Assembly (NCBI GenBank): GCA_951406725.2
Contig: OX597824.1
Coordinates: 32,860,001 to 32,924,000, forward strand
Origin: Octopus vulgaris
Lineage: Eukaryota
Direction: 5' to 3'
Length of the DNA stretch: 64,000 nucleotides
Shown: piece by piece, positions 3,629 to 57,386 of the stretch
How the letters are laid out: each line of letters opens with the position of its first letter
How positions within the stretch are numbered: the first letter of the stretch is position 1
Position numbers and translations under genes: made by a program
The notes under the pieces: model-generated
What the model was told of the DNA's origin: nothing
The model's input: only the letters and a program-made list of their open reading frames with translations
The model's database searches: none

Positions 3629-3904
3629 TCATTGAGGGTGGAATACTGCTGAAGAATGTCCGATATATATATGGTGTTGGCTGTAATTTCCTCGTACTGG
3701 TTCCCACAGAAAAAGGTAATAGATGCCAAGAAAGAATGCAAGTCCAAAACCGATACTGAGATAAATGACAACCATAAACATTTTAAATGACAAAATTTGA
3801 AACGGGGAAACTGGTTTGGTATCTCCACCACCAGCAAGTTTTGGTGGCGAGGAAGATTTTCTTCGTGGGGCTTCAGGAACTGTCAGAGAAACCGAATCTG
3901 CCAT
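3629..3904 (-). CDS. InaF-motif-like small single-pass membrane protein, paralog A (91 aa)
   Basis: ATG at 3904 in gaaaATGg context. MADSVSLTVPEAPRRK...KMFMVVIYLSIGFGLAFFLGIYYLFLWEPVRGNYSQHHIYIGHSSAVFHPQ. The last 39 aa are 35/39 identical to paralog B, with mostly synonymous nucleotide changes. YYxFLWEP resembles the InaF motif end (YY..[LI]W.P). Confidence 0.85.
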   Translation of the reverse strand: MADSVSLTVPEAPRRKSSSPPKLAGGGDTKPVSPFQILSFKMFMVVIYLSIGFGLAFFLGIYYLFLWEPVRGNYSQHHIYIGHSSAVFHPQ

Positions 3905-4765
3905 TTTCAAAAAGAAATCTTTTAGCTCTTTTAACTAAAAGCTCCAGGTACCTCTGCTCGTAAAGCTATATCTGAAATGATTTCAGGAACTGTTTTTTCG
4001 GTATTGATTGAGAATCTCTAAGCTATTGCACGCCAATTATTCTAGATAAACACTATAAACCTCTATTATTACTCTTATTATCATAGAATTCCTTTATACG
4101 TATTGTAAATGAATCTACTTATATTAAGGCAATTATTTAATTTGTATAGCGTGACAAAATACGGTGAAGATTCGCTCTTGAAAAGTAGGTAAATTATTTG
4201 AAAATAAAGATTAAAAAGCCGATTATTGATAATACTTAATGTATACTAATCATTAAAAATTACTAGGCTGGGTTCTATAATGGGGTTGACTAAATTATTC
4301 GCACCAGATAGATTTCTCTCTATGACGTAAGAAGCTTTGCAAGTAAACTCCGCTAATCTGAACACATGTCTACTCTTATTGCATTGTTTTTACATTATTT
4401 TCTTTATTTATTCATTTATTTCATATATGCACGTGCAGACATACACACATACACACACACACACACACACACACACACACACACACACACACACACATAT
4501 ATATATATATATATATATAGAGAGAGAGAGAGAGAGAGAGAGAGAGAGAGAGAGAGAGAGAGCAATAAGAAAATGGCGGGGATCAATATGTGGTTCATCA
4601 ACTTTTAGACATTATGTTAACTTATTTATTTATTTACTAAAATGACAATTGCAAGAATATACATACATACATGTATAACATATGCTTTACATATAAAATA
4701 TATTAATATATAAGGATACCAGTCATTATTAAAAATATAACATACAGGAATATAAATTGGGAAAA

Positions 4766-4893
4766 ATATCTTACAGCTGTTTCAGCCAAGAGGCAAAAAT
4801 ACCTAATTCTACCTTTATTCCTCCAGTAGACTGAAGTAATAAGTAGATGAAATTGAGGTTCTTGGGTGTTTCTCTAGGCTTCGTCAGAGATTT
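4766..4893 (-). ncRNA. Type I hammerhead ribozyme-like motif (PLE-associated)
   Basis: atct-CTGACGA-agcc...(about 90 nt)...ggct-GAAA-cagctg-TA-agat. Helix I atct/agat, helix II agcc/ggct, palindromic helix III acagctgt. Confidence 0.6.
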
Positions 4894-5039
4894 TAGAAAG
4901 TACATAAGGTTAAGTTCTAAATAAATACGCACACATTCACAAACTTATACATAGACATATGCATTACATATATAAATATACATAAATACATATATATACA
5001 CTTGAATTTACATACATATTTACATTTGTAAGCTTGCAC

Positions 5040-54465: not shown

Positions 54466-54689
54466 ATGCATACATACATACATACATACATACATGCATA
54501 CATGCATACATGCATACATGCATACATGCATACATACATACATACATACATACATACATACATACATACATACATACATACATACATACATACATACATA
54601 CATACATACATACATACATACATACATACATACATACATACATACATACATACATACATACATACATACATACATACATACATACATAC
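54466..54689. repeat. (TACA)n microsatellite; representative of very abundant (TA)n, (CA)n, (GA)n, (TACA)n, (AAT)n and (GATA)n arrays
   Basis: Seen directly. Other large arrays at ~9120-9255, 14265-14357, 15031-15395, 20460-20768, 44125-44195, 46083-46260 and 53570-54110. Confidence 0.95.
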
Positions 54690-57200
54690 TGATCATCAGT
54701 ACCTGACTATTGGTCATGTAATATGAAAATTAAAGTTTAACTCTATGGGAATTCAACTCAGAATGTTAAGAGATATGACTGTGAACCACACAGCTTTTCA
54801 CCAAGTACTCTACTGATTCTAGCATCACTGCTTGTAAGCTAGAGACAAAAATGAAATAAAATTCAAGATACAATGGTTCAGATACGTCCCATTGTCACTC
54901 TTATTCTTGGGCCCTAAGATTTACAAGACCAGTTACCTGGTTTCTATGGCATGTAACTAACCAAGAACACAACATTCCCTCTGAACAGGATACAATACTA
55001 TTGTAGCATTCAAGGACAGCAATTTTTGAAGGGAGGAAACAATTATTATATTGACTTCAGTACTTGACTGGTACTTTATTTTATTAGCTGTAAAGAAATG
55101 AAATGCAAAGTTGATCTCAGCAGGATTTGAACTCAGAATGCAAAGAGCCAGAACTAGTGTCACTAAGCATTTTGTCCAACATGCTAACAAGTCACCCAGC
55201 TTGCTGCCTCCATTTAGACACTTTGTAGAATAATAATTTCCTTTTGGCAAATTGGGAAGTCTTACTTGGAATAAAGGTCAATAGTTAATAGAGAAGATTA
55301 GAAATGATGAAGCTACACCATGGAGAAACAGAGAAATAGTTCCCAATCAGTTTTCTTTAGGAATACCAAAATTCAGCATCAATATTTGATAATAATGGCT
55401 TCAAATTTTGGCACAAGTTTGGAGAAAGAAGTTAAGTCACTTACATTGATACCAATTGATACCATTGATATGTGCCGGTGGCACATAAAGGCACCCACTA
55501 CACCCTCGGAGTGGTTGGCGTTAGGAAGGGCATCCAGCTGTAGAAACTCTGCCAAATCAAGATTGGAGCCTGGTGCAGCCATCTGGTTCACCAGCCCTCA
55601 GTCAAAATCATCCAACCCATGCTAGCATGGAAAGCAGACGTTAAACGATACTTATTTTATTGAGAAAGCAAAGTTGACCTTGGTGGAATATGAACACAAA
55701 ATGTAAAGACGGGATGAAATGCTGCTAAGCATTTTGTCCATCATGCTAATGATTCTTATTTCTTTATTGCCCACAAGGGGCTAAACATAGAGGGGACAAA
55801 CAAGGACAAACAAAGGGATTAAGTCGATTATATCGACCCCAGTGCGTAACTGGTACTTATTTAATCCACCCTAAAAGGATGAAAGGCAAAGTCGACCTCG
55901 GCGGAATTTGAACTCAGAATGTAATGGCAGACGAAATACCTATTTCTTTACTACCCACAAGGGGCTAAACAGAGAGGACAAACAAGGACAGACAAACGGA
56001 TTAAGTCGATTATATCAACCCCAGTGCGTAACTGGTACTTATTTAATCCACCCCAAAAGGATGAAAGGCAAAGTTGACCTTGGCGGAATTTGAACTCAGA
56101 ATGTAATGGCAGACAAAATACCACTTAGCATTTCGCCTGGCATGCTAACGATTCTGCCAGCTCACCACCTGCAATGACTTCATAATATTAAAAATAAGTG
56201 GAAGACAGTGAGCTGGTAGAATTATTAGCATGCTGGGTGAAATGCTTAACAATATTTCATCTGTATTCATGTTCTTAGTTCAAATTCTGCCTTTCATCCT
56301 TTCAGAGTTGATAAAATAATTACCAGTTGAGTACTGGGGTTGATGTAATTGATTTACCCTCTCCCCCGAAACTGCTGGCCTTATGCCAAAATTTGAAATC
56401 AATATTAAAAACTAAGAGGAAATATATTGATATTAAATGGCAAATATACGTCACTATATAAAGAGAGTTTATAAAAAAAACAAAAGACGAAGACAGATGG
56501 TGTACAAAACAAACAGATGTATTAGTATAACACTTAGGAATAGAAAATGTCTTTTACGTTTCGAGCCTACGCTCTTCTACAGAAAGGGACACAGAAAAAA
56601 ACAAGGAGAGAAGAAAATGTGTGCAGTGGCTAATGATCTATCATGGCAACTATATATATATACACACATACACACACACACGTGCGCGCACGCACGCACA
56701 CACACACACACACACATACACACATGCGCGCATGCACACACACACACACATATATATATATATAATATTGACAAGGTGTATAAGAAGATAATTATATCTT
56801 CCTCTATCACAAAAAGAAAATGAATCTGATGAGGAGATCTTCCTTTTGCTCTGAGTCAAGTGATTTGAAGATTTTTATGACATCATTGAATCATGGTCAT
56901 GTGACTTTCACATGTAAAAGTCACATGTGACTATAGATTTACATATTCTCATATTCTCATTTAATCTAACGTGAATTAAACAAACAAAAACTAATTCTTA
57001 CCTTCTTGATTTTTTTCATCAGAATTCTTTTTGTATTTGTCTTCTCAGCAAATGTCTTTTAAAATCTTTGACAAAGTGTGTATAATATTATGGTTTGTTC
57101 ATGTACACTAAAACTGATGCATGTTAAATAACCTAAATTACATTACTAACCAAACTAGTGCAAGAATTGTGGATTAATGACACTTTCAGTGAATAGATGG

Positions 57201-57386
57201 TTACATATGATATATACTCCTTCTCTTTGGGGAATACAGAAATACATAATACACCACCATGAAAATACTAAGGAAAGCCATTAAGCCCAAGTAGAAGGCC
57301 ACCTCAATTATTTTTCTCTTGGTTGTTGGTGAGATATAGTAGTACTTCTTCTCAGCTAGTTTATTTTTCATTTTGTTTATGTCCAT
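57201..57386 (-). CDS. InaF-motif-like small single-pass membrane protein, divergent paralog D (61 aa)
   Basis: ATG at 57386 in strong Kozak context acaaccATGg. MDINKMKNKLAEKKYYYISPTTKRKIIEVAFYLGLMAFLSIFMVVYYVFLYSPKRRSIYHM has a basic stretch, a TM helix and YYVFLYSP. Candidate acceptor (TC)n...CACTAG| at 57418 and donor AAG|GTAAGA at 57001. Confidence 0.7.
   Translation of the reverse strand: MDINKMKNKLAEKKYYYISPTTKRKIIEVAFYLGLMAFLSIFMVVYYVFLYSPKRRSIYHM

Follow-up and report, generated by a model that had tools for sequence, protein, structure and literature searches.

Six co-oriented reading frames for InaF-motif micro-proteins in Octopus vulgaris, apparently an undescribed variant of the InaF family

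The DNA analysed here is a stretch of 64,000 nucleotides (the window) from the genome of Octopus vulgaris, C11:32,860,001-32,924,000, with positions counted from its first letter; the genome searched comprises 2.8 Gb. The window contains four minus-strand open reading frames (ORFs), A to D, which are predicted to encode small single-helix proteins of the InaF family. Two further copies, E and F, lie on the downstream side of the array, and no copy was found upstream when 100 kb of flank was searched on each side. The ORFs, starting from the upstream end, are as follows.

57201..57386, minus strand: ORF D, 61 residues, a divergent InaF-motif protein without a His-rich tail, the furthest upstream copy
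34408..34641, minus strand: ORF C, 77 residues, InaF-motif protein with the tail RGNYSKH
26416..26691, minus strand: ORF B, 91 residues, InaF-motif protein with a His-rich tail
3629..3904, minus strand: ORF A, 91 residues, InaF-motif protein with a His-rich tail
C11:32840975-32841238, minus strand: ORF E, 87 residues, past the left edge of the window
C11:32834573-32834836, minus strand: ORF F, 87 residues, past the left edge of the window

The six copies are thus on one strand, in the order D, C, B, A, E, F, and span 82.8 kb. A preliminary description of the window, made from its letters, had reported a co-oriented array of four copies over 54 kb; the co-orientation stands, while the number and the extent have grown. 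Its four minus-strand ORFs of 61–91 residues were recovered in a six-frame scan, in which the motif YY-x-F-[LF]-[WY]-x-P is found in exactly four minus-strand stop-to-stop frames of the window, as YYLFLWEP (A), YYVFLWEP (B), YYIFFWDP (C) and YYVFLYSP (D). A fifth match, on the plus strand at 6615, was discarded because it lies inside an interspersed repeat and has no in-frame upstream ATG. ORFs with the motif occurred in 0 of 200 shuffles, but the motif itself was taken from ORFs A–D. Interspersed repeat makes up approximately 38% of the window and 0% of the coding sequence of A–D, and the base at −3 of the ATG is A in all four.

When the whole genome was searched with A, the matches were confined to A, B, C, E and F, a copy number to be read as a lower bound. 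In tblastn, B, E and F match A as clear paralogues (E 4e-30 to 2e-20). E and F share 770 nt at 91% identity, which points to a recent short duplication; an assembly duplicate was ruled out, the shared stretch being so short and no more than 91% identical. Between the copies no other host gene was seen among frames of at least 90 residues, judged by eye, and only repeat-like frames were present; short exons could escape such a survey. Of the five gaps in the array, three have almost the same length, at 22,559 nt (34642-57200), 22,511 nt (3905-26415) and 22,390 nt (from 3628 leftward to ORF E). Under random placement this has a probability of about 5e-4, calculated post hoc, and the equality is possibly chance. 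Larger segmental duplication units were ruled out, as collinear matches in the three 22-kb gaps are no more than in control stretches.

Membership of the InaF family, as proposed in the preliminary description, is borne out by the Pfam InaF-motif profile PF15018 (gathering cut-off 21.8 bits). Without any use of the motif given above, this profile is the best Pfam match for all of A–D (E 2e-7 to 1.3e-3), and A (23.2 bits) and C (31.3 bits) lie above the cut-off. Among relatives, the orthologue of B scores 23.9 bits, and C and its orthologue 31–35 bits. Several observations weigh against a simple assignment. B (21.4 bits), D (19.2), E (16.7) and F (16.4) fall under the cut-off, and for E and F the profile ranks second, behind a chance-looking match to YukC. 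The array also lacks the basic stretch of the canonical octopus InaF protein G, described below: the net charge of the 15 residues preceding the helix is +6 in G, and +1, +3, −1, +4, +3 and +4 in A to F. A basic juxtamembrane segment had been described as common to A–D; on these values it is weak in A and absent from C.

The other protein features described earlier were found as stated. There is a single hydrophobic 19-mer in each of the six ORFs (mean Kyte-Doolittle 2.1–2.7 in A–D), and the [VI]SP motif is found in A, C and D. For C, AlphaFold predicts one helix, at residues 20–51. The conserved helix pattern is Y-x10-L-x2-YY-x-F-x-W-x-P, and the helix ends in YY-x-x-hydrophobic-W-x-P in five of the six, D having Y in place of W. 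The residues that are invariant across InaF proteins (Y, YY, W, P) are retained in the array. Beyond the helix, a common tail, W-x-P-V-R-G-N-Y-S-x-H-[HR], is found in A, B, C, E and F and is absent from the other InaF proteins retrieved. It takes the form RGNYS-x-HH-x4-H, with four or five histidines in A, B, E and F and two in C. We do not claim glycosylation of the N-Y-S sequon, which sits only about six residues beyond the helix and is missing from Argonauta (RGKYS). A search of the PDB gave no InaF relative, whether by sequence (one designed helical protein, E 0.37) or by fold (0 matches).

The family placement of D rests on its PF15018 match (E 1.3e-3), its position in the array, and an Atlas search in which the three best clusters are all InaF (scores 0.75–0.80), which we take as a lead only. 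On the basis of these sequence comparisons, A–F are six co-oriented ORFs for single-helix InaF-motif proteins, with A, B, C, E and F forming a conserved cephalopod subfamily.

Conserved orthologues, to which the preliminary description had looked, are found for all but D. In O. bimaculoides, A corresponds to A0A0L8FQP3 (82/91 residues identical), B to A0A0L8FRJ6 (76/91), and F to A0A0L8FQV9, the E/F orthologue (82/87). C shares 42 of 77 residues with its orthologue P0014, and both start with MPGKK. Argonauta hians has a copy of A/B type (GAB1609648.1). The O. bimaculoides and Argonauta orthologues match the array ORFs in length and start. In the helix region 28–29 of 30 residues are identical (A, B, F), and in the N-terminus of B 22–28 of 39; the tail is conserved about as well as the helix (17–20 of 22 identical in the A, B, E and F orthologue pairs). 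D gave no homologue in a word-based protein search, and its best matches are a mix of array and insect proteins.

The genes had been called hidden, and this is true in part. None of the exact sequences of A–F is in a collection of 15 billion proteins, and no O. sinensis entry is among the matches of the array protein search; but the three O. bimaculoides orthologues of A, B and E/F are already in UniRef, as ‘uncharacterized’, and the Argonauta copy is a predicted protein. These octopod predictions are named ‘uncharacterized’ or ‘hypothetical’. No related locus was found in two metagenome scans, and a sequencing-run search with the C region listed no RNA run, which carries no weight either way.

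Nonsynonymous (dN) and synonymous (dS) divergence were compared over a 50-codon core for the ten pairs among A, B, C, E and F, with D excluded. In seven of the ten pairs dN is far under dS (p<0.001); for A–B the values are 0.19 and 1.40 (p 2e-7). Three pairs count against selection, in that dN/dS is not significantly below 1 (C–E, p 0.09; C–F, p 0.05; E–F, p 0.12). As judged from these ratios, purifying selection acts between the five paralogues, which are almost certainly coding. D is probably coding, and it would be surprising if it were non-functional. The same evidence bears on the simplest alternative, that the ORFs are pseudogenes or chance frames within repeat-rich DNA. Such a reading can draw on D, for which no orthologue was found; it is opposed by intact frames with length and start conserved across species, by the excess of dS over dN, by the Pfam match and by the lack of overlap with repeats. 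We consider it very improbable; for A, B, C, E and F it is in large part refuted already, for D less so.

The octopus genome contains nine InaF-like ORFs, compared to two InaF genes in human (PMC13012068), which agrees with the expansion proposed earlier. The three outside the array are as follows.

C11:98264721-98265008: ORF G (L001), canonical InaF, 62 bits, with the basic segment KKWVRL and no His-rich tail
C11:98235406-98235714: ORF H (L003), 29 kb upstream of G in the same orientation
C10:84009 kb: ORF I (L002), a lone InaF ORF of 84 residues, 56.7 bits

G is identical to O. bimaculoides A0A0L8FMF0 (‘InaF motif containing 2’) and lies on the same contig as the array, 65 Mb away. A separate genome search gave 19 rows, of which seven are A–D, G, H and I; the other twelve (L006, L008-L011, L013-L019) were discarded as chance matches that are of low complexity or contain stops. 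A tree was built from 28 short cores (64 columns); it includes insect proteins, without fly INAF-A to -D and without non-cephalopod molluscs by name, and its bootstrap is not fully settled. Of 15 rows from a protein search, two, P0017 and P0021, were left out of it as repeat proteins. A branch with 98/100 support separates the array and its orthologues from G, H, I and the insect proteins. A long stem branch leads to the array clade, and D has a very long branch of its own, so that its placement is unsure.

G and H each have a donor-like site after the stop (+68 in G, +57 in H) and no upstream acceptor. From this layout, the G/H pair is a better candidate than the array for the direct counterpart of the fly inaF locus. 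I is perhaps a single-exon or retroposed copy. Two of the proteins retrieved, P0015 and P0023 (one of them from the beetle Phyllotreta), contain two InaF motifs each, and may be gene models that fuse neighbouring InaF exons of a complex locus.

In the fly locus the INAF-B ORF is located in a first exon (PMC3433705), and inaF-A to -D have a common 3′ untranslated region (UTR) (PMC4528330). The octopus ORFs were scored for splice sites, using hand-set generic matrices that were checked against the octopus TRPgamma-like gene, with 10 donors and 10 acceptors. In seven of eight ORFs (A–H) the best upstream acceptor scores −0.36 or less, as against 1.5–10.7 for all ten real acceptors; B has an upstream acceptor at −90. 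The candidate donors past the stops of A–D are listed here, with the exon boundary marked by a slash.

56996..57004, minus strand: candidate 5′ splice site AAG/GTAAGA, 199 nt past the D stop; score 6.39, background p 0.03
34401..34409, minus strand: candidate 5′ splice site AAG/GTAAGA, 1 nt past the C stop; score 6.39
26371..26379, minus strand: weak candidate 5′ splice site CAA/GTATGT, 39 nt past the B stop; score 2.4
3583..3591, minus strand: weak candidate 5′ splice site AAG/GTTCGT, 40 nt past the A stop; score 1.3

Donor-like sites are found at +12 past the stops of both E and F, and in F also at +116. For sites within 250 nt after the stops, Fisher's test gives p 0.018 (A–E) and 0.002 (A–E, G and H), F being omitted as a duplicate of E. 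The combined acceptor and donor pattern fits coding first exons with a subsequent intron in the 3′ UTR, and we consider it probable, from the sequence signals, that every ORF forms the coding first exon of a separate transcript. By analogy with the fly, the ORFs might further be spliced onto a common 3′ UTR exon, a suggestion that we make tentatively and would not yet favour.

There are clear points on the other side. The 250-nt window was picked after sight of the sequence; taken singly, the donors of A, B and E do not rise above background (p 0.20–0.37); I has no donor-like site past its stop, and adding it weakens the pattern; and a comparison of the F and G downstream regions found no candidate shared 3′ exon. 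An element of low copy number common to these two regions was rejected as a shared exon, since it is a repeat in opposite orientation. It may be that A–F are six ordinary stand-alone single-exon genes with their own 3′ ends, like human INAFM2, and that the donor-like sites are chance. This proposal deals solely with gene structure and leaves room for TRP binding. The human precedent, the missing donor of I and the weak donors of A, B and E favour it, and we would put it at only slightly short of an even chance. What it leaves to coincidence are the strong donors after C, D, F and H and the moderate one after G (p 0.01–0.06 each), and the matching distances of the A and B donors, at 40 and 39 nt. 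Moreover, there is no AATAAA within 1.5 kb past the stops of B, E and F, which is weak by itself, and the weak A, B and E sites may be real, since real octopus donors score down to −1. First exons remain our preferred interpretation. Longer C-termini occur in P0012/P0025 and P0013/P0026/P0027; the idea that they are remnants of a common exon was rejected, the two tails being unlike each other. In these proteins W stands at or right after the position of the TGA of A, B, E and F, which suggests that the gene caller read TGA as Trp.

The function of the array proteins can be approached through the better-studied members of the family. Fly INAF-B binds TRP, and each is needed for the stability of the other (PMC3433705). 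Three of the four fly proteins, INAF-A to -C, are reported to associate with TRP, B and C as auxiliary subunits, and human ROME/INAFM2 to co-precipitate TRPC1 without setting its level (PMC13012068). Contact with TRPC channels has thus been reported in both fly and human. According to the same account, ROME is found at the plasma membrane, with its C-terminal part treated as extracellular, and also binds beta-catenin and vimentin. The octopus genome contains seven TRPC (TRP_2) genes, none of them on C11. A TRPgamma-like gene is present, one exon of which is 100% identical to O. sinensis TRPgamma-like.

We hypothesise that the array proteins bind TRPC channels, mainly because the family-invariant residues are retained; the balance tips modestly in favour of this. 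With similar, limited confidence we suggest that they would serve as interchangeable auxiliary subunits, binding and stabilising TRPC-type channels in different cell types. Each protein would insert with its N-terminus in and its C-terminus out, as reported for ROME. The conserved helix would then pack on the membrane domain of the channel and either shield it from turnover or tune its gating, like INAF-B, a step that we also rate a little above even. By analogy with the outer C-terminal part of ROME, the RGNYS-x-HH-x4-H tail would face outward. More speculatively, the tail and the variable cytoplasmic N-termini, with their S-P site, might provide paralogue-specific regulation. It counts against this proposal that the role is not universal in the family, given that association with TRP is reported for three of four fly proteins and that ROME has other partners.

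A different proposal is that the array encodes InaF-derived micro-proteins with a changed partner. On this account G, with H and I, would serve TRPC, whereas the array would act on some other membrane protein, or would use its His-rich tail for sensing pH or metal ions. The long stem branch of the array clade would be explained in this way, as would the drop in Pfam score from 62 bits in G to 16–31, and the loss of the basic juxtamembrane stretch together with the gain of a tail that is conserved about like the helix; the non-TRP partners of ROME provide a precedent. Against it, the array still has the invariant Y, YY, W and P, suggesting an unchanged binding face, and C and its orthologue still score 31–35 bits. 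We regard a change of partner as unlikely, though less so than any of the more specific proposals below, and continue to prefer TRPC binding.

The TRPgamma-like gene contains three tandem exons of 195 nt that encode the pore loop and S6 (C13:21579763-21579957, 21581282-21581476 and 21581537-21581731; L083-L085), each with an acceptor and a donor, the last two being 60 nt apart. Two of them correspond to P0029 and P0028, isoforms of O. sinensis; the middle exon fully matches neither. The three look like mutually exclusive pore exons.

A narrow reading of the preliminary description concerns photoreception. The array proteins would then be retina-specific subunits of the phototransduction TRP channel, or would act in photoreceptors of skin or sucker. 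The fly provides a precedent, the octopus has a TRPgamma-like gene, and in an atlas of the squid Euprymna berryi a TRPC gene marks both photoreceptor types, r1 and r2 (PMC12240821). However, in the tables of that atlas none of 1,836 retina-marker rows is InaF-labelled, which tells against such a role. The sole InaF-labelled marker among the rows listed, EB18067 (inaF-D orthogroup), marks dopaminergic and glutamatergic neurons of the optic lobe (PMC12240821), and no TRPC gene is linked to the array. EB18067 is probably the canonical InaF gene, and the array genes may be unlabelled in these tables, so that they lower the likelihood of a retinal role but do not exclude it. Photoreceptor-specific use, argued by analogy with the fly, is in our view rather unlikely. 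The term ‘inaf’ had no match in the readable supplements of PMC9712504, PMC9839350 and PMC9815951.

In the literature searched, which includes PMC3660236 and PMC11674832 and has subscription papers and closed supplements outside its scope, no description of cephalopod InaF genes was found, nor did an auxiliary subunit for any cephalopod TRPC channel turn up. A–F therefore apparently represent a real variant of the InaF family that has not been described before. That several InaF paralogues can occur at one locus is already known from the fly; what is new is a cephalopod array that stands apart from the canonical gene and has a His-rich tail, together with a hint of a recurring first-exon layout.

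The action of INAF proteins on TRP channels is known almost solely from the fly. The octopus array offers a conserved set of five or six natural variants in which the helix is constant and the ends differ, and hence a direct test of what the InaF helix binds and how it is tuned, in an animal whose photoreceptors express a TRPC. If the shared-exon architecture is true, the same rare layout would have expanded separately in flies and cephalopods; this would point to an old protostome layout, as the G/H pair also hints. There is also a gap in annotation, in that gene sets relying on protein length or on counting of 3′ ends would miss or merge the array genes. The most far-reaching possibility is that cephalopods independently rebuilt a fly-like inaF locus, in which six alternative first exons, all coding and driven by separate promoters, are spliced onto one shared 3′ UTR. 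The products would be cell-type-specific TRPC subunits whose His-rich tail confers sensitivity to pH or metals, and which combine with the three TRPgamma-like pore exons to diversify light- and sensory-evoked currents. As a whole we consider this improbable.

Around the array, two uninterrupted p25-alpha/TPPP ORFs on the plus strand face it from the left, at C11:32801254-32801787 (L025) and C11:32812222-32812704 (L024), the second having a divergent C-terminal half. To the right, the closest host gene noticed is a long acidic low-complexity frame on the minus strand (L030:2150-4888), approximately 29 kb upstream of D, with a weak match to PAM2 (E 0.01). Minus-strand frames at 59878-60423 and 62521-63392 of the window look like remnants of Tc1/mariner transposases.

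Comparison with known InaF systems places the array as follows. The Drosophila inaF locus (inaF-A to -D) likewise encodes several small single-pass InaF-motif proteins close together and co-oriented, the octopus six having no other gene seen between them, and the position of the INAF-B ORF is resembled by the first-exon-like signature of the octopus ORFs. Unlike the fly locus, the octopus array comprises six copies over 83 kb of repeat-rich DNA, apart from the canonical InaF gene (the G/H pair at C11:98.2 Mb); it has a His-rich tail; and it groups only with cephalopod-type sequences when set against the sampled insect proteins, fly A–D not being among them. Human INAFM2/ROME and INAFM1 share the InaF helix, and ROME the reported membrane location, outer C-terminal part and TRPC1 contact; it differs from the array in being a single-exon gene for 153 residues, one of two per genome, with beta-catenin and vimentin as partners and no effect on the TRPC1 level (PMC13012068). 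Closer to hand, A0A0L8FQP3, A0A0L8FRJ6 and A0A0L8FQV9 of O. bimaculoides are direct orthologues of A, B and E/F, yet neither these nor the Argonauta prediction carry any description as an InaF subfamily or array in the literature and databases searched. The octopus canonical protein G belongs to the same family and the same contig, and its ORF is likewise followed by a donor-like site; in its 62-bit score, its KKWVRL segment, its lack of a His-rich tail, its distance of 65 Mb and its place on the opposite side of the tree, it stands clearly apart from the array.

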